Sequence record: NC_014260.1
Source: Escherichia phage IME08
Length of the DNA: 64,000 nt
Strand: one strand, 5' to 3'
Shown here: positions 8,740 to 48,224 of the stretch, in pieces
Layout: every line of letters starts with the position of its first letter
Numbering within the stretch: position 1 is the stretch's first letter
The notes under the pieces: generated by a model
The model's input: the letters and a program-made list of their open reading frames with translations, nothing else
The model's database searches: none
Told to the model about the DNA's origin: nothing
Made by a program: the position numbers and the translations under genes

Positions 8740-10071
8740 TCAAACGTAATAAGCATCAGTACGAGCACGAGTAATACTAACATAAGCTAGCTGTGAAGCT
8801 AAACTCACATCAGCCATATGCATACACGGCGTATAGATGAAACTGTTCTGGACTGTGAGGCCCTGAGATTTATGAACAGTGCTCACCGGAAGAGCTCGAA
8901 CCTTAGTAAACATTCTCTTAGCTTTCCAAAAATCAGCCCACTTAGGTTTCTTACCTGTTCCACGCATGGCTTTGTATTCAGTAGCAACCTTAGCCAAGAA
9001 ATAATGGAACTTCTCGACTGAAGCCTCATCGATAACCTTTAAATGCTCTACATAGTACTCGTCGTCTTCATCAACGGATTCTACTTGCAGGTCCCAGTAA
9101 TTAATCATTTGTCGAGTGCCTACATCCTTAGCAGACAAGAACAATGAGGTGTGGTTCACATCCAGAATACGAACCATTTGGCCATTATTAAAAATGGTTT
9201 CAGAGAATTTCTTACCGTCGTATTCAAGTTCCTTCATAAAAGGCTCTTGCATTACTAGGATTTCACCTTTGATATAAGGTGCATCGGTTTCATAAAGCTT
9301 TTTACGAATAATGCTATTCAGCTTTTCAACCGATTTATTTGTATAAGCAAACATCCTATTTTCAAATAAGGCATCCGCGTCTTTTACGATGGAAAAATAA
9401 TTCATCATAAAATCTTTTAAAGCAGTTTGGGATTTAAAGCCATGGACACCATGTCCTTCGAATACACAATCTCTAAACCACCCGCCATTACGGATTTCAG
9501 TAGCAACCTCAATGATAGGAGCATTACTACGCATTACTTCGGTCAAATGCAATTGCTTGATTTTTGGATGAGTAAAGAACGGAGACAACTGTGGACTACC
9601 ATCACTTCCTGGTTCCACTGGCTGAAGCTGAGCTCTGTCGCCAATCCCTAATACAGTACACCATGGAGGCACGGAAGATTCGATAATCTTAAACAGCTTA
9701 CCGTCAATCATCGAGCCTTCATCAACAACTAACACATTACATTTGCTCAAGTCAGGAGCTTCGCGTTGTTCAAAGATATCCTGGTCTTCGTATGTAGTAG
9801 GGTTAATCTTTAGAATTCTGTGGATTGTTGATGCTTCTTGACCTGCGAGTTTAGACAACACCTTTTTGGCCGCATGGGTGGGTGCAGTCAAAATAACTCC
9901 GAGTTCACCATTCTTGACTAGATGGTCAAGAATAAATTTGGTAAGGGTTGTTTTACCCGTACCAGCAGGACCGTTCAATGTAATCCATTCACCCTTACGT
10001 CGTTTAATAGCTTCAATGATTTCTTTAAAAGCCGTCCTCTGGCCGATGTTCAAGTCTTCAAATGTAATCAT
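8740..10071 (-). CDS. dda: Dda 5'-3' DNA helicase (SF1)
   Basis: 443 aa; Walker A GPAGTGKTT; alignable along its length with recalled T4 Dda (AAPTHAAKK, VKALPASTFHKAQG, YVGVTRGR-like end). Confidence 0.95.
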   Translation of the reverse strand: MITFEDLNIGQRTAFKEIIEAIKRRKGEWITLNGPAGTGKTTLTKFILDHLVKNGELGVILTAPTHAAKKVLSKLAGQEASTIHRILKINPTTYEDQDIFEQREAPDLSKCNVLVVDEGSMIDGKLFKIIESSVPPWCTVLGIGDRAQLQPVEPGSDGSPQLSPFFTHPKIKQLHLTEVMRSNAPIIEVATEIRNGGWFRDCVFEGHGVHGFKSQTALKDFMMNYFSIVKDADALFENRMFAYTNKSVEKLNSIIRKKLYETDAPYIKGEILVMQEPFMKELEYDGKKFSETIFNNGQMVRILDVNHTSLFLSAKDVGTRQMINYWDLQVESVDEDDEYYVEHLKVIDEASVEKFHYFLAKVATEYKAMRGTGKKPKWADFWKAKRMFTKVRALPVSTVHKSQGLTVQNSFIYTPCMHMADVSLASQLAYVSITRARTDAYYV

Positions 10072-10367
10072 GCCAATTTTACTCGCTTAACATATAAAGT
10101 GTCTAAAACTAATTTAAGTTCTCGAGCCCGTTCTTCAGTAGGATATACGGTTTTTGTTTCCCGCTTATCAAACCACCATTTTCTAGGTGTGTACACTGTT
10201 TCAATGCGTCCTTTACTTAAATATCGTTTTGTAGTGTATGAATACCCAGCGCATTCTAAATCAGCAGCGGCTTTTGTGGAATATAAGGTCACCTTTCCGT
10301 CATATTCCAATGGAATTTCATACCCATCTTTGTCCTTGTGAACCAATACATATGCGTAATACATCAC
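10068..10367 (-). CDS. hypothetical protein (dda.1 position)
   Basis: 99 aa ORF overlapping the dda start by 4 nt. Confidence 0.55.
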   Translation of the reverse strand: MMYYAYVLVHKDKDGYEIPLEYDGKVTLYSTKAAADLECAGYSYTTKRYLSKGRIETVYTPRKWWFDKRETKTVYPTEERARELKLVLDTLYVKRVKLA

Positions 10368-10368
10368 G

Positions 10369-11103
10369 TTAACCTCTAATCAGTGAAAAAATTGAAGCAT
10401 TCAGCGGAAGACCTTTTTTCAACTTCAATTTGTCAATAAAAGAAAGGTGTTCTAAACGCTCCAGACCTTGAATAATTTTATCATACATATCGTAACGCGT
10501 TTCTGCTTCAGATAATTTAAACTTGACGCGCCAATCAGGCCCACCAATTAAAGATTTAAGACCCTTTTCCATCATACCAATCGAAGCGTTAGAACCGTGG
10601 ATACGAGCTTTAACCGCGATAACAGAAGGGGTCTTATCAGTAGCTCCTGATTTAATAAGGTCCTTAAGACGTTTTTCACGCTTTTTAAGACCTCTTTGGG
10701 TATCTTTAATATTTTTAACGATTTTACGAATTTTATAATAATTATCTGGGGTAACTTTAAAACTATTAGGCATTTTAGAACCACCTGAAATACGAACCGC
10801 CAAACGAGTCTGGGCCCGTTTAAGTTCGTCAAGAGATAAATCGGCACGTAAGCTGTTGTACTTAACTTTAACCGGGATTACATTACCCTCAATATAGCCG
10901 ATATCGTTGTTAAAACGTTCAAATGAAATCTTATCATTAACTGAATTCTCATCAAAGCGCTCGCCTGAATAAGCACACACTTTTTGTTCGAGAAGTCTAC
11001 GAACATACTTACTAGATAGGTTGAAGTCCTTACCACGTTTATAAGCAGAAGCTTTGGTGTGTTTGCGGCGGTTGTAAACCTTTAACTCAAATTCAGTAGT
11101 CAT
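10369..11103 (-). CDS. srd: putative anti-sigma factor Srd-like protein
   Basis: 244 aa, basic; size and position between dda and modA match T4 srd; no independent motif. Confidence 0.6.
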   Translation of the reverse strand: MTTEFELKVYNRRKHTKASAYKRGKDFNLSSKYVRRLLEQKVCAYSGERFDENSVNDKISFERFNNDIGYIEGNVIPVKVKYNSLRADLSLDELKRAQTRLAVRISGGSKMPNSFKVTPDNYYKIRKIVKNIKDTQRGLKKREKRLKDLIKSGATDKTPSVIAVKARIHGSNASIGMMEKGLKSLIGGPDWRVKFKLSEAETRYDMYDKIIQGLERLEHLSFIDKLKLKKGLPLNASIFSLIRG

Positions 11104-11130
11104 GATATTTTCTCATCTTACGGACGATTA

Positions 11131-11171
11131 GTTGATAGGTCTATAGTATCATGTTGCTTGGTAAAGTAAAC
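11131..11171 (-). promoter_or_regulatory. sigma70-type early promoter with full conserved block
   Basis: minus strand GTTTAC + 17 nt + TACTAT + AGACCTATCAAC; 28 nt above srd ATG. Confidence 0.7.
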
Positions 11172-11240
11172 ACTTTTTTGCTTTAAATTTTCGACGGTAT
11201 AATGAATCAAGGACTTTGCCTTTCAATTAAATCGGGCGGT

Positions 11241-11855
11241 TCAGTAAGAAAGAACGGAAAGATTCCAAATGGTGTAATTATTCCATTTAGGATTTCTCTC
11301 AATAGAGTCTACGCGCAGCGTAGTTCCCGCAGGGAACATCATCTCATCTTCATCATTGATTAATTGTAAGTTTGCTACACGGGTAGATTCAGGAAATGCG
11401 CCTGGGAACTCTTCAGGGGGCGCGGCACATAACATTTTAAAGATTTCTTCCTGATAATTGTACACAAATGGTGCATCATTAATACAAAAGATATTAAATG
11501 TGCCGTAGAAGTTATAAGATGCGAAATTCCTTGCCACGTTGAAGTCTTTAGAGAAGCTCATTACTCGGTCGAATTCAATTACGGCACCTACACACATCGT
11601 AGATTCAAGATATGCCATAGTCTTCTTAGAAATCCCACGATACAACTTATCAGGCACTACAGAAGTCAGGTTCTTACGAATAATTTTGTTCAGAGTTTCC
11701 TGGATAGTATCTGGTTTATTTTCCATACACTGCCAGAGGGTACTCTGTTCTAAATCAGAATACACCTCATCAATTTCTATCTGAGTATTCTCACGGAAAT
11801 CATCGCATTTAGCGTTGTTGATAAATTCTGCTAATTTATGGCTTGGGTATAACAT
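11241..11855 (-). CDS. modA: ADP-ribosyltransferase (ModA/ModB family)
   Basis: 204 aa; shares LYRGI...FS...ARNFA motifs with the adjacent paralog; position matches T4 modA. Confidence 0.7.
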   Translation of the reverse strand: MLYPSHKLAEFINNAKCDDFRENTQIEIDEVYSDLEQSTLWQCMENKPDTIQETLNKIIRKNLTSVVPDKLYRGISKKTMAYLESTMCVGAVIEFDRVMSFSKDFNVARNFASYNFYGTFNIFCINDAPFVYNYQEEIFKMLCAAPPEEFPGAFPESTRVANLQLINDEDEMMFPAGTTLRVDSIERNPKWNNYTIWNLSVLSY

Positions 11856-11862
11856 ATTATTC

Positions 11863-11910
11863 TCCTCAGTTGATAGAAAGATAGTACCACAAGCTTCCTT
11901 GCCTGTAAAC
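11863..11910 (-). promoter_or_regulatory. sigma70-type early promoter (GTTTAC, 18 nt, TACTAT)
   Basis: gttgatagaaagatagta...gtaaac directly above modA start. Confidence 0.5.
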
Positions 11911-12479
11911 TAAAAATCCAACATTTTTAAATGAATTGTTTTGTACTCGATTTCGTACGGGTCCCTTTTGATGGTTTCGATTTCAACAATCTCGAAACGT
12001 GATAGGCTGGAGACCATGAACTCACATTCAGTTTCAACCATATCATAGAGGTCGATACGGGTTTCATCTATTTCAAGCTCATCCACATTCCCTGCAAGAA
12101 CAAGGTCGATAGCATGATTGTAGTAGTCGAAAATGAACGGTGCATTCCTGAGACTTAAAATGGTTTTGGTTCCATACTCCCATGCCCCTGCGAACTGACG
12201 AGCCTGGGAGTATTGTGTACTAAAAGAAGTAACTCGACCAGGAGACCATTGACACCCTACTGAAAGGAGCTCTAATTGCTCAAGTTCTCTGGTGGTAATC
12301 CCACGATACAACTCTACTGGAACCGCTGAAGTAACATGCTTACGAACCAGTTTGTCGAGGTCGTAATGGAAGTTAGGGTCTTTTTTGGCATCTAGACATT
12401 TTTCTAAAAGATTCTGTTCGTGTTTTGAGAATTTGGAATTGATTCGGTCTTGATAAAGACATTTTTGTTCGATGTTCAT
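11910..12479 (-). CDS. modB: ADP-ribosyltransferase (ModA/ModB family)
   Basis: 189 aa; paralog of preceding ORF (ELYRGIT, SFSTQYSQARQFA). Confidence 0.7.
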   Translation of the reverse strand: MNIEQKCLYQDRINSKFSKHEQNLLEKCLDAKKDPNFHYDLDKLVRKHVTSAVPVELYRGITTRELEQLELLSVGCQWSPGRVTSFSTQYSQARQFAGAWEYGTKTILSLRNAPFIFDYYNHAIDLVLAGNVDELEIDETRIDLYDMVETECEFMVSSLSRFEIVEIETIKRDPYEIEYKTIHLKMLDF

Positions 12480-12504
12480 ATGACCTCCAGTGATTTAGAG
12501 GTCA

Positions 12505-12532
12505 TTATAACATGAAGGGAGGAGGTGTAAAC
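12505..12532 (-). promoter_or_regulatory. sigma70-type early promoter (GTTTAC, 16-17 nt, TATAAT)
   Basis: minus strand GTTTACacctcctcccttcatgtTATAATgacc above modB. Confidence 0.55.
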
Positions 12533-12786
12533 TACTTAAACACCCCAAGTGGGACGCCAAACACTGCAATGTCAGCAGCTTGACCCATTAGGGATTGGGT
12601 ATATGAAGTATAAGAGCTTTTTGATTCATAAGAGCTTTTTGTTTCTGGAGCCTTGGCCGTAATCTTAGGAGCTTTTGCCTGAATATTTTTTTGCTCGATT
12701 TCCTTACGAGCTTGTTTACGGTCGATATCCAACGCCGATGTAGGTATATTAGTTAGCCAATTCATCATTTTACCCAAGGAGCCCAT
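12532..12786 (-). CDS. hypothetical protein with Ser/Tyr-rich segment
   Basis: 84 aa; KSSYESKSSYTSYT low-complexity stretch. Confidence 0.45.
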   Translation of the reverse strand: MGSLGKMMNWLTNIPTSALDIDRKQARKEIEQKNIQAKAPKITAKAPETKSSYESKSSYTSYTQSLMGQAADIAVFGVPLGVFK

Positions 12787-16151: not shown

Positions 16152-17176
16152 ATTTTAGAATATTTCGAAAGTCTCATTTTAGCCATTAGACCTTGGGCTA
16201 TATTAGCTTTCATATATGCCAGTACATCATTTATATCAGCTTTATCTTTCATAATCATATCATTTATATCTTTAGAAGGCCATGGAGCCTTGTCCCAGAA
16301 TAGAACCCTTTCGCCAGCATCAACTAATCGTTGCATACGCTTAATTGTGTCAGGATGGCGGGGTTCATTGTCCATTACCCAAGCTCGAGTTTCTTTACAC
16401 GGAACCATAGCCAAGTCCAATGACCCACCAGTAATTGCTATTGCATTAGGTACGAATAATGAATCAATAGGACCTTCCATTACCCACACCAACTGACGTT
16501 CGTCAACTGTATCCATTCCATATATTTTTGTAGCTTGGTCATGAGCTTTTATTGTAATATATTTTTGTGGAGCATCTTTACGTAAGGCTCGACCCTGAAA
16601 ACTTTCAATTTGTTTATTCTTATTGAAAATTGGAATAACCAAACGCGGTTCAGGCATTTCTTTAGAATAGGTCCCTGGATTCACAGAGTTAACTAATGCG
16701 GGCCATTCTTTAGTAAACCACAGCCGATTCCATTTGTTTTCAGGAATGCAACGTAGTGTCACATATTTGATAATAGGATGGTCCTTTGGCATTCTATCTA
16801 ATCGTTCACAGAAATTAAGCTTTTCGATAACAGGCATCTTAGCTTTAATTTTTTCAGATATCTCCACCTTAGGTGCAGCTTGTCTCCCGAACGATTGCTC
16901 TTTATGTTTCTCAAGAATATATTCACGATATAAATCAGGCTCATATTCGTATAGATACTTCTTAATTCCTGCTGAATAATCACAGTTAAAACAGTGCAGC
17001 ATTACAGAGCCGTCATTGGCCGGATAGGCCCAAAAACGCGCTTTGTTCTCATCTTTTAGGGAGTCGCCACATACACGACAACGGCAATTTAATTTAAAAT
17101 CACTACCAGTTACTTGTCTGAATTTAGGTTGGTAATTCAAGGCACGTACAGCAAATTCTCTATCGACATATGACAT
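16148..17176 (-). CDS. 61: DNA primase
   Basis: 342 aa; N-terminal zinc ribbon CRCRVC...CFNC; same length as T4 gp61. Confidence 0.9.
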   Translation of the reverse strand: MSYVDREFAVRALNYQPKFRQVTGSDFKLNCRCRVCGDSLKDENKARFWAYPANDGSVMLHCFNCDYSAGIKKYLYEYEPDLYREYILEKHKEQSFGRQAAPKVEISEKIKAKMPVIEKLNFCERLDRMPKDHPIIKYVTLRCIPENKWNRLWFTKEWPALVNSVNPGTYSKEMPEPRLVIPIFNKNKQIESFQGRALRKDAPQKYITIKAHDQATKIYGMDTVDERQLVWVMEGPIDSLFVPNAIAITGGSLDLAMVPCKETRAWVMDNEPRHPDTIKRMQRLVDAGERVLFWDKAPWPSKDINDMIMKDKADINDVLAYMKANIAQGLMAKMRLSKYSKI

Positions 17177-25191: not shown

Positions 25192-26849
25192 TGTTTGTGG
25201 AGTTCAGTAGAACCTGTAGGTTTATATTTTACACCAGTTTCTTGGTCAAGCAAAACCCACTTATCAGGACAACGAGTGATAATTTGAGCCGTGATAGGGT
25301 CGCGAACTTCATCAACGAATTCACCTGTGATAAGCTTACGCTTACGAGGATGCCGCTTCAGCAGCACACTCAGTTGATATAAACCATTGTAATAAGCACC
25401 CAGAGCTTTCAGAGGGTTATTTTTAAAGTAACCTGCCAATGCCATCCAGATAACAGCAATCCAGAGCTTGTGCTTAAATGTACACATTGGAATATCATCT
25501 AATGGCATAACCTTTTCAATATCAACGAATACACGAGTTCCGTTACGAGTTAAGCCACCCCATAGAGGGTCGGAGTTAAATTTGTCATAACCATCGATAG
25601 AATAAAGCACCTTAGCTTCGTCATAAATCGCAGGGCCTTTAGAACTATTACCAAAATAACCACGTGGGTCGATGATTTTAATATCACCTTCGTCCGACAA
25701 CATAATATTACTGTAGTGCGGGTCACCATGAATAAGTTGGTACGGTTCTTTATGTTCAGACAGAATTTCTAAGGCGTGACGAAGAAGTTTTTCTGGGTCA
25801 CCTACCTTAAAGTCATTGACATGGGTAATGCCCTGTGGAGCAAAGCCTTCAATCAATCCAGCAATAGAAGCATTACGAATAAGGACCTTGTCCAATACTT
25901 CTTTCTTAACATCAGAATACCATTGCTCATCAGATGGATTATCGATAGTCCCACCGAATGAACGCAATGCACTAATGACCTTATAAACCATGAGGACTTT
26001 AGTTTCTTTAGACATAAACCGGTAGGCATCTGCCATAGTACGACCAAAGATACGTTCCATTTTAATGAATTCACCTGGAGCAAAGTCTACAATGCTCGGA
26101 ACGAATTCAGAATCAATAGAATTGTACCAATTGATTTCTTTAGATTGGATTTCTTTACCTAATTCGTTGGTAGGTACTTTAATAGCCAGATTCTCAGTGA
26201 ACTCTAATTTATTAAATTCACGGTTAATTTCAGAATCTTCATGAGCCTTAGCCAGTTTCAGTTTGTCACCGACATCAACTACAAAGTCCAGCTTACGTTC
26301 AGTCAAATGGACCATTGAATCCAGATTGTCAGCAAGGTCTTCGCCGTAATTAGAACCGTTAAAACCTGTCCAATTGGCTACTTGATACAAACCAACTACA
26401 CCGCCACCGGTACCAATTTCACGCAGGTACGGTTCTTCAAATGTAAAACGACAGTCGGTCCCATAGGTATAACAGTAGTCGTTATCCCACTCAACTTTAT
26501 GGCCCTCAGGAATGATGTCACACCAGTTAAACAGGACATTGTGCCCGATGATATCTTCAGCAATGCAATCGATAGCATGAGCTGAGCCATTGGCAACATC
26601 TACGTTACGAATAGTGAATTTAGGCTTATCGCTGGTAATCATGTTAATGGATTTAATATAACCCTTAACGAGGTCATTAAATTTGCTATGAATTACCAAA
26701 ATGATTTCATCTGATTGGTTACTATACAAATCATACAAATGTTTTAGTACTGTATGTTGTTTGTAGTTAACCAATACCTTCGGGATTTCGTTAGTAATTG
26801 GATACAACCGTGAGCCAAGACCCGCGCCTAAAATAACAACCTTTTTCAT
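25176..26849 (-). CDS. bifunctional nucleotidyltransferase / APH-choline-kinase-like kinase
   Basis: N-terminal ILGAGLGSRL sugar-phosphate nucleotidyltransferase signature; C-terminal LIHGDPHYSNIM...IIDPRGY kinase motifs; start set at MKKVVILGAG with GAGGAA SD. Confidence 0.8.
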   Translation of the reverse strand: MKKVVILGAGLGSRLYPITNEIPKVLVNYKQHTVLKHLYDLYSNQSDEIILVIHSKFNDLVKGYIKSINMITSDKPKFTIRNVDVANGSAHAIDCIAEDIIGHNVLFNWCDIIPEGHKVEWDNDYCYTYGTDCRFTFEEPYLREIGTGGGVVGLYQVANWTGFNGSNYGEDLADNLDSMVHLTERKLDFVVDVGDKLKLAKAHEDSEINREFNKLEFTENLAIKVPTNELGKEIQSKEINWYNSIDSEFVPSIVDFAPGEFIKMERIFGRTMADAYRFMSKETKVLMVYKVISALRSFGGTIDNPSDEQWYSDVKKEVLDKVLIRNASIAGLIEGFAPQGITHVNDFKVGDPEKLLRHALEILSEHKEPYQLIHGDPHYSNIMLSDEGDIKIIDPRGYFGNSSKGPAIYDEAKVLYSIDGYDKFNSDPLWGGLTRNGTRVFVDIEKVMPLDDIPMCTFKHKLWIAVIWMALAGYFKNNPLKALGAYYNGLYQLSVLLKRHPRKRKLITGEFVDEVRDPITAQIITRCPDKWVLLDQETGVKYKPTGSTELHKQWKKI

Positions 26850-42668: not shown

Positions 42669-43138
42669 TTAAGCGATTTCCTCAGTTGTTTTTTAAACGA
42701 ATCGACCATTTGTTTCTTAGTAGCAGATTCATTATAAGTCATTCCATGTGAAAGCATTTCAGCAATCATTTCTTCCTTACCCAACCTGCTGAACTCTTTG
42801 GTTTTATCGGGAACGAAATTAGGATGAATATTGTTTTCAGTATAATCAGCTTTCAGATAGACCAGCAAATTCTCTAACCATTCGAGGTAGTCAACGTTTT
42901 GACCTTTAAGACCAGAACGGTTGAACTTATGCTTCATTTGTCCTTCTGCAGCATTGCACAGGTTACATAGTAAACCACGAACCTTACCGGCTTTTGGCCC
43001 GTTTAACTCGTGGTCGTGGTCAAGGTGGTTACTTTGAACATCAGGGTTTAATTCACGTTTACAAATCAAACACTTACCACATTGTGCATCATAAAGTTTT
43101 TGTTTTTCTTCTTTGTATAATTTGCCGGTCAACAACAT
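42665..43138 (-). CDS. 49: endonuclease VII (Holliday junction resolvase)
   Basis: 157 aa; MLLTGKLYKEEKQK...HLDHDHELNGPKAGKVRGLLCNLCNAAEG nearly identical to recalled T4 gp49. Confidence 0.95.
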   Translation of the reverse strand: MLLTGKLYKEEKQKLYDAQCGKCLICKRELNPDVQSNHLDHDHELNGPKAGKVRGLLCNLCNAAEGQMKHKFNRSGLKGQNVDYLEWLENLLVYLKADYTENNIHPNFVPDKTKEFSRLGKEEMIAEMLSHGMTYNESATKKQMVDSFKKQLRKSLK

Positions 43139-43733: not shown

Positions 43734-44042
43734 TTAACGGTCACACCACCAACTACTTACTTCAAAATCAGGTTCACCGTGTTCCCAGTACCAAGGGCCG
43801 ACTGGATGCCAATCGCCATGTTCATCTTCTTCAAATTCTTCAGATTCAAGCCCAACATATTGCCATTGGACTTCATAAGCGGTGCCACCTATTACAACGG
43901 TGTTCTCGCCATATGGGTGAGCTACAGCAAAGTCTATACCTTCTGCTTTAGCCAACCAAACCATATATTCGTATAGTTTATATTCCAGGTCATCTTCGGT
44001 GCCATCACCTAGAAAAATGGTTTGTTCGTTTAATTCAATCAT
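43734..44042 (-). CDS. hypothetical acidic protein
   Basis: 102 aa, Trp/Glu-rich. Confidence 0.45.
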   Translation of the reverse strand: MIELNEQTIFLGDGTEDDLEYKLYEYMVWLAKAEGIDFAVAHPYGENTVVIGGTAYEVQWQYVGLESEEFEEDEHGDWHPVGPWYWEHGEPDFEVSSWWCDR

Positions 44043-48161: not shown

Positions 48162-48224
48162 AATAATTTCCTCAGTAAGTAATTAAGAACCTAGAACCAT
48201 TATACCATCCTTGGTATAAAGCGT

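Follow-up and report, generated by a model that had tools for sequence, protein, structure and literature searches.

A conserved MotA-type middle promoter predicted antisense to the ADP-ribosyltransferase gene modA in T4-like phages

The gap between modA and srd of Escherichia phage IME08 (NC_014260.1) carries on its plus strand a sequence that is best read as a MotA/AsiA-dependent promoter of the T4 middle class, from which a non-coding RNA antisense to modA would be made and the mod genes shut off. We put the probability of this explanation as a whole at about 0.55. That the site is a functional MotA-type promoter is very probable, its activity in vivo and its MotA dependence being predicted from sequence, and the specific role in antisense shut-off is put forward at slightly under even odds. 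What is new, at the level of sequence comparison, is a deeply conserved site of a known promoter class in an orphan antisense orientation. The analysis covered a 64,000-nt stretch of the phage genome (hereafter the window), together with related loci from other T4-like phages.

The phage IME08 locus (10900–11500) is 98.5% identical to its best match, phage IME540, and 94.7% identical to phage JS98 of the genus Dhakavirus. All genes for tens of kb around the site lie on the minus strand, the nearest plus-strand genes being tens of kb off (Table 1). As the 137-nt modA–srd gap is flanked by minus-strand genes, a plus-strand motif within it is antisense to modA. The preliminary description had reported a MotA-like box followed after 12 nt by TATAAT in this gap, and direct reading of the plus strand around the promoter, ttttTTGCTTTAaattttcgacggTATAATgaatcaagg, confirmed its coordinates as well as its sequence; a longer stretch of the gap reads tttttTGCTTTAaattttcgacggTATAATgaatcaagg. 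The octamer TTGCTTTA spans 11178–11185, so that position 11179 is the T of the core TGCTTTA. Together with its lead, tttttTGCTTTA at 11174–11185 fits the MotA-box consensus (a/t)(a/t)(a/t)TGCTT(t/c)A (PMC2988021, PMC1524935), and the TATAAT that follows fits a −10 element of the form TAnnnT placed 11–13 bp 3′ of the box. A usable −35 element is absent: the hexamers 16–18 nt upstream are TTTTGC, TTTTTG and TTTTTT, which match TTGACA at 2–3 of six positions at most, and a sigma-70 promoter scan of the region did not report the antisense promoter. In its box, A/T lead, 12-nt spacer, TATAAT and lack of a −35 the site resembles the T4 middle promoters PuvsX, PrIIB2 and PuvsY. Unlike these, it faces away from every gene on its own strand and has no coding sequence downstream, and it is therefore not a promoter for gene expression. 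The stop codon of modA lies 37 nt past the −10.

Table 1. Features of the dda–modB region of phage IME08 (window coordinates)
Feature	Position	Strand	Basis or remark
dda	8740–10071	−	ORF list
dda.1	10068–10367	−	ORF list
srd (stimulates RNase E; annotated as anti-sigma factor)	10369–11103	−	PHROG 1400 'Srd', E=4e-92
T4-type srd early promoter: GTTTAC (11171–11166), 17 nt, TACTAT (11148–11143)	11143–11171	−	minus-strand sequence
A/T-rich lead (ttttt) and MotA box TGCTTTA (11179–11185), centre at about −30	11174–11185	+	sequence, consensus match
12-nt spacer	11186–11197	+	sequence varies between genera except for the last two bases (GG)
Sigma-70 −10 hexamer TATAAT	11198–11203	+	sequence; invariant in 33/33 distinct elements
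Conserved discriminator and start block GAATCAAGG	11204–11212	+	conservation among 33 distinct elements
Predicted transcription start (A)	11210	+	7th nt past the −10, as in T4 PuvsY
Predicted non-coding antisense transcript across modA	11210–11855, may reach into modB	+	inferred from promoter
modA (RNA polymerase ADP-ribosyltransferase)	11241–11855	−	PHROG 832 'RNA polymerase ADP-ribosylase', E=1e-44
modB (second ADP-ribosyltransferase; upstream of modA, same direction)	11910–12479	−	PHROG 832, E=2e-37

The exact motif TGCTTTA-N12-TATAAT occurs once in the window. None of 100 dinucleotide-preserving shuffles contained any match, and an estimate from base composition gives ∼0.01 expected occurrences per window; the probability of roughly 10 percent that the preliminary description had allowed for a chance match was thus too high. 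Looser forms of the motif are enriched and fall in their majority on the gene strand. TGCTTTA-N11-13-TANNNT was found seven times against 0.86 expected, with five of the seven on the minus (gene) strand; TGCTTNN-N11-13-TATAAT three times against 0.30, the two besides the modA site being on the minus strand; and another looser form 14 times against 3.3. This enrichment on the gene strand is as predicted by a working MotA system. Among the strict minus-strand matches, at least that at 42731–42756 resembles T4 PnrdD, an experimentally mapped promoter. The sole other plus-strand match to TGCTTTA-N11-13-TANNNT in the window (TGCTTTAGCCAACCAAACCATATATT, 43944–43969) has a weaker −10 and lacks the extended block described below, and is probably due to chance.

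We scanned the assembled T4 genome with the strict pattern TGCTTNN-N11-13-TATAAT and compared the result with the ∼58 identified middle promoters of Hinton 2010 (Table 1 of PMC2988021). The pattern has 14 matches, 11 on the minus strand and three on the plus strand. Each of the 11 coincides with a middle promoter identified by experiment. None of the plus-strand matches, with starts at ∼11,897, ∼76,000 and ∼150,458, is in that list. The start at ∼11,897 belongs to the homologue of the modA antisense promoter, and the listed promoters closest to it are Pdda.1 at 11,138 and P56/69 at 16,813; its absence from the list means either that it was never tested owing to its orientation or that it was tested and found silent. 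In RB69, the orthologous site, on the plus strand of the srd–modA gap with TGCTTTA-13-TATAAT, is contained as 'Pm:12081' in Additional file 4 of Nolan et al. 2006 (PMC1524935), and we checked it against the RB69 sequence. There it is one line of an HMM table, with a score of 7.9, and it was neither discussed nor tested nor recognised as conserved or antisense. Differential RNA-seq of T4 (bioRxiv NAD-cap study) is described as yielding 150 start sites on the phage genome, of which 22 are antisense. T4 differential RNA-seq data for 0, 4, 10 and 20 min are deposited as GEO GSE255091. In a full-text literature search, no antisense promoter or RNA was found described for modA. The T4 match near 150 kb (TGCTTTTCCACGGTTTTTCTTATAAT, plus strand, NC_000866 ∼150,426–150,451) lies inside rnh in antisense orientation and is without the extended block.

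Conservation of the unit was assessed in ∼175 kb of Srd-anchored loci from IMG/VR and GenBank, using the strict pattern NGCTTNN-N11-13-TATAAT. With Krischvirus-like loci set aside, every locus that has an ADP-ribosyltransferase gene (41 loci, 33 distinct sequences) contained the unit exactly once, on the antisense strand and just 3′ of that gene, the distance from the end of the −10 to the stop codon being 3–46 nt throughout. These loci came from Dhakavirus, Tequatrovirus, Mosigvirus, Gaprivervirus, Jiaodavirus, Karamvirus, Gelderlandvirus, Kanagawavirus, Marfavirus and a few other lineages, about ten genera when those of T4 and RB69 are included. Elsewhere in the same ∼175 kb, both strands together, there were only two strict matches. 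Among the 33 distinct elements, no variation is seen in GCTT or at any of the six −10 positions. The spacer is 12 or 13 nt long in 41/41 elements and nearly random in sequence (∼0–0.7 bits), apart from the last two bases before the −10, which are G in 27/33 and 29/33. Downstream of the −10, the G immediately following and the T at the fourth position are invariant, A is found at the seventh position in 27/33 and G at the ninth in 31/33; the flanks of the unit have diverged and are of low information content. Judged from these alignments, such a profile, invariant blocks around a variable spacer of fixed length, is that of a promoter. The surrounding proteins differ considerably: T4 and phage IME08, whose units correspond (aaaaaTGCTTTAaaactttcatggTATAATgaatctaagtcc on the plus strand of the T4 srd–modA gap), share 49% identity in Srd and 39% in ModA, and in T4, RB69 and the ∼8 further genera Srd and ModA are 30–50% identical to those of phage IME08. 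A search for loci anchored on the ADP-ribosyltransferase gene gave an alignment too diverse to yield an independent sample, and tblastn returned ModA/B homologues in enterobacterial T4-like phages only, with no srd-independent sample beyond the Marfa type.

The unit stands back-to-back with the early promoter of srd on the minus strand of the gap, which has the GTTTAC of the early-promoter consensus (PMC1524935). The MotA box is 7 bp from the early −35 in phage IME08 and 14 nt from GTTTAC in T4, and the A-rich UP-element zone of the early promoter overlaps the MotA box and spacer. Many T4-like genomes have at other places, such as near 161 kb, unannotated sites that match the segment 11128–11181 with ∼85% identity; we interpret these as other early promoters, a reading of the sequences that fits a long extended early-promoter consensus.

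Comparison between genera indicates that the unit is linked to the ADP-ribosyltransferase gene and not to the srd early promoter. Karamvirus and Gelderlandvirus have the early promoter on the modA side of the unit, which thus falls in the srd 5′ UTR, and in the Jiaodavirus gap no early promoter was recognised by eye. In Marfa-type phages a dmd-like gene stands between the ADP-ribosyltransferase gene and srd, and the unit follows the stop codon of the ADP-ribosyltransferase gene at a distance of 28 nt. In two Srd loci an ADP-ribosyltransferase gene is missing upstream, and so is the unit. The dmd-like insertion was seen in Klebsiella phage Marfa (locus L025, 1186–1253) and in two further loci (L043 and L044); its RBS is abutted by the MotA box in the same way as the RBS of srd is in Karamvirus and Gelderlandvirus, and this placement suggests recombination at or beside the unit.

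The same comparison points to co-occurrence of the unit with motA. As the window stops short of the corresponding region of phage IME08, the presence of MotA and AsiA was taken from JS98, which has annotated motA and asiA genes. MotA homologues are also present in Marfa, Karamvirus, Gaprivervirus and Klebsiella phages, and MotA was found in Morganella phage MP1 too. In Krischvirus (ECD7 and three IMG/VR contigs), the modB–srd order is kept with a 61-nt gap that does not contain the unit, and the syntenic 18.7-kb t–52–rIIB region of ECD7 gave no MotA or AsiA homologue (best E 0.2–0.4) in a search whose JS98 control was positive. RB49 has been reported to be without motA and middle promoters (PMC1524935). 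Overall, the reading as a T4-type middle promoter offered in the preliminary description is supported by the shuffles and by a unit at the same position in T4, RB69 and ∼8 more genera.

No intrinsic terminator (hairpin and T-run) was found on the antisense strand within 1.2–1.6 kb in 12 lineages, the candidate at 11945–11962 being a weak one of five pairs; both strands of 10300–12700 matched no Rfam family at E<=1, and there is no conserved ORF downstream of the promoter. A 53-codon plus-strand ORF (11202–11363) was rejected as a small protein because it begins inside the −10 and so would not be transcribed from the promoter; its counterparts in T4 and RB69 are only 9 and 13 codons long, and neither Pfam nor PHROG gave a match to it. 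A discrete small RNA was likewise rejected, as a terminator of its own was not found. With no ORF, Rfam family or terminator, and with all genes on the opposite strand, the simplest mechanism is a MotA-timed non-coding antisense transcript.

We propose the following sequence of events. Right after infection, unmodified sigma-70 polymerase would pass over the site because it has no −35, and early promoters would drive modB, modA and srd. As AsiA and MotA build up, MotA would bind the TGCTTTA box, and the remodelled polymerase would use the TATAAT and start near A 11210. The RNA would be non-coding, without its own terminator, and would run antisense across modA and perhaps modB. Convergent transcription and pairing of this RNA with the 3′ part of the mod mRNA would then turn off the toxic early ADP-ribosyltransferases at the early-to-middle switch, the collisions being with early transcription from promoter-like sites at 11909–11881 and 12531–12504. 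Polymerase on the antisense promoter would also cover the UP-element zone of the srd early promoter. We infer both the extent of the transcript and, as its purpose, the down-regulation of modA and modB. ModA is made early and has a high toxicity for Escherichia coli (PMC2988021; PMC9697503), which provides a rationale for a timed shut-off. Deletion of modA leaves the shut-off of early transcription unaltered (PMC2988021). That result has no direct bearing on the control of modA itself and shows that regulation of mod is not known to be critical. The arrangement is comparable to that of lambda OOP RNA, whose promoter lies just past the 3′ end of cII and points back, and which lowers the sense mRNA through cleavage of the duplex. 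As in lambda, the promoter is on the opposite strand just past the 3′ end of its presumed target (37 nt here and 3–46 nt in other genera). However, OOP is a 77-nt RNA with its own terminator and a constitutive promoter, whereas the modA antisense site has no terminator and would be timed by the phage activator on which it is predicted to depend. Against the antisense model, an RNA without an intrinsic terminator lacks a defined length, and the conserved block past the −10, like the similarity to the oriF promoter considered below, is not explained by it.

Among the other explanations, a chance match in A/T-rich intergenic DNA is scarcely credible. Short A/T-rich motifs are frequent there, and each strand of the window should have ∼0.4 matches to the looser pattern, but the absence of the exact motif from all shuffles and, more strongly, the maintenance of the unit across ∼10 genera exclude this alternative, which the preliminary description had left standing; we count it as already refuted by conservation. 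It is also very improbable that the site is no promoter at all and merely mimics one, the functional signal being on the sense strand as an UP element of srd or as a 3′-UTR or processing signal of the mod mRNA. The reverse complement, TAAAGCAAAAAA, does sit at the place expected for an A-rich UP element of the early srd promoter, and the conserved block past the −10 falls within the mod 3′ UTR. Yet the register to the early promoter shifts (7 versus 14 nt), and this promoter is on the other side in two genera and was not recognised in a third; together, the register and the changing position of the early promoter rule out a by-product of the srd UP element. Moreover, two invariant blocks with a variable gap of fixed length are a promoter signature and not an RNA motif, the unit is missing precisely where MotA is, with the mod–srd order nevertheless retained, and on the T4 minus strand the strict pattern predicted promoters in 11/11 cases. 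A less remote, though still unlikely, possibility is a real promoter that acts by occupancy or collision and not through its RNA, blocking the srd early promoter and mod read-through into srd–dda.1–dda, so that the unit would be an insulator and switch between the early and middle programmes. This would agree with a MotA box 7–14 bp from the srd early −35 and within the UP-element zone in phage IME08 and T4, with the Karamvirus and Gelderlandvirus arrangement, in which the promoters are read as facing each other with nearly coincident starts and binding should therefore be mutually exclusive, and with the lack of a terminator or conserved RNA feature, which fits a role for the act of transcription. 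In Marfa-type phages, however, the next gene is dmd and not srd, and with the early promoter of Jiaodavirus not recognised by eye the common denominator is the ADP-ribosyltransferase gene and not the srd promoter. Occupancy overlaps with the preferred reading of an antisense promoter that shuts off mod, and the two are inseparable by sequence alone.

A different function is raised by the likeness of the site to an origin promoter. The T4 homologue of the modA element, tggTATAATgaatctAAGTCCtTCCAtTA, is identical at 27/29 positions from −14 to +15, and at every position from −14 to +6, to tggTATAATgaatctAAGTCCaTCCAaTA of T4 PuvsY, the promoter of oriF, whose start site has been mapped experimentally (PMC2988021). 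The modA element and PuvsY have in common an extended block, GGTATAATG..TC.A.G, which in T4 is found in PuvsY, PnrdC.7, more loosely P34i (oriG), and the plus-strand orphans at ∼11,897 and ∼76,000. PuvsY orthologues in other genera have a block and leader of this kind, and a leader like it (A[AG]G[TG][TC]C..TCCAT..AAT) is met with in several genera. The block was rejected as a general middle-promoter feature, most of the 58 listed T4 promoters having A/T after the −10, and so was concerted evolution of PuvsY and the modA element within genomes, which T4 and, in part, RB69 show and JS98 does not. The only other extended-block site of the window, CGCTTTAtaccaaggatggTATAATggttctaggttc at 48198–48223 on the minus strand, is the homologue of T4 PnrdC.7. 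If the product of the modA antisense promoter were a replication primer, it would be a non-coding transcript like those of oriF and oriG that forms a persistent R-loop and starts leading-strand synthesis. We regard this as improbable. The mechanism requires only a middle promoter and an unwinding element (PMC3016281); oriF and oriG promoters are MotA-dependent and give transcripts with a non-coding role, and oriG, according to the T4 record, is likewise a MotA promoter placed antisense inside a gene. By its sequence the modA site would be such a MotA-dependent middle promoter, its T4 homologue and PuvsY agree in −10, discriminator and first 15 transcribed bases, the region downstream has no ORF or terminator, and the first 50–80 bp that follow the T4 homologue rank within the 4–8% least stable T4 windows, at least as unstable as oriF. 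This instability is, however, not conserved. In phage IME08 no A+T-rich unwinding element follows the promoter (GC 0.42 in +1 to +50): 75% of genome windows are less stable than +1 to +50 and 66% of locus windows less stable than +1 to +60, which places it at the 66th–75th percentile, and RB69, at the 55th, does not have such an element either. In contrast to oriF and oriG, no origin has been mapped, annotated or reported at ∼11.9 kb in T4, and for an origin one would not expect so close a link to the 3′ end of the ADP-ribosyltransferase gene. For phage IME08, the origin reading is not supported. Identity with T4 oriA, the origin closest to the site, was rejected, as oriA, at 16,763 on the minus strand and primed by a gene 56 transcript, is 4.9 kb away and has the opposite direction.

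The second T4 orphan lies on the plus strand of NC_000866 at ∼75,968–76,000 (25968–26000 of locus L133), in the gap between genes 3 and 2, both of them late genes, and points antisense into gene 2. Its sequence, TGCTTTA-13-TATAATgggtctAAGTCCCTTCCATTCAAT, has the extended block and leader of the modA element, and it is kept on the plus strand in RB69 (locus L151, ∼966–1000; Pm:79256 of Nolan) and in JS98 (locus L152, ∼2383–2415). There may be at least two orphans that read antisense from just past a stop codon, one behind modA and one in the gene 3–2 gap. That they belong to a small new family of 'PuvsY-like' MotA promoters with a shared box, −10, discriminator and ∼20-nt leader, the orphans being oriF-type R-loop origins or serving another dedicated non-coding leader function and not simple antisense regulation, is a speculation that we think doubtful. 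If it were true, T4-like phages would hold more MotA-driven origin-like elements than the two known.

The transcription of T4 is among the best-mapped programmes, yet the curated list of middle promoters does not contain the site, even though the whole T4 genome has only 14 perfect matches, the T4 homologue among them, and the site is kept across ∼10 genera. If the modA antisense promoter fires, it would offer a simple explanation for the restriction of ModA and ModB expression to the first minutes of infection, and it would be a case of a lytic phage that uses an activator to time an antisense promoter. The antisense model predicts neither the oriF likeness nor a second conserved orphan behind gene 2, and these raise the question of whether T4-like phages contain further MotA-driven non-coding elements, possibly origins.

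Several other signals were seen on the gene strand of the locus. The 54-nt modB–modA gap of phage IME08 (11856–11909) contains an early-promoter-like TTTACA-17-TACTAT on the minus strand that overlaps a stem-loop, and upstream of modB (12504–12531, minus strand) there is a near-consensus TTTACA-16-TATAAT with TG. T4 modB and modA overlap without a gap, so the operon structure differs from that of phage IME08. In the 5′ leader of srd, positions 11115–11125 read TCTTACGGACG on the plus strand and CGTCCGTAAGA on the minus strand. Across T4, RB69, Dhakavirus, Gaprivervirus and Jiaodavirus this motif hardly varies, and in Jiaodavirus it falls within the antisense-promoter spacer. It may be an RNA-processing or translational signal for srd.
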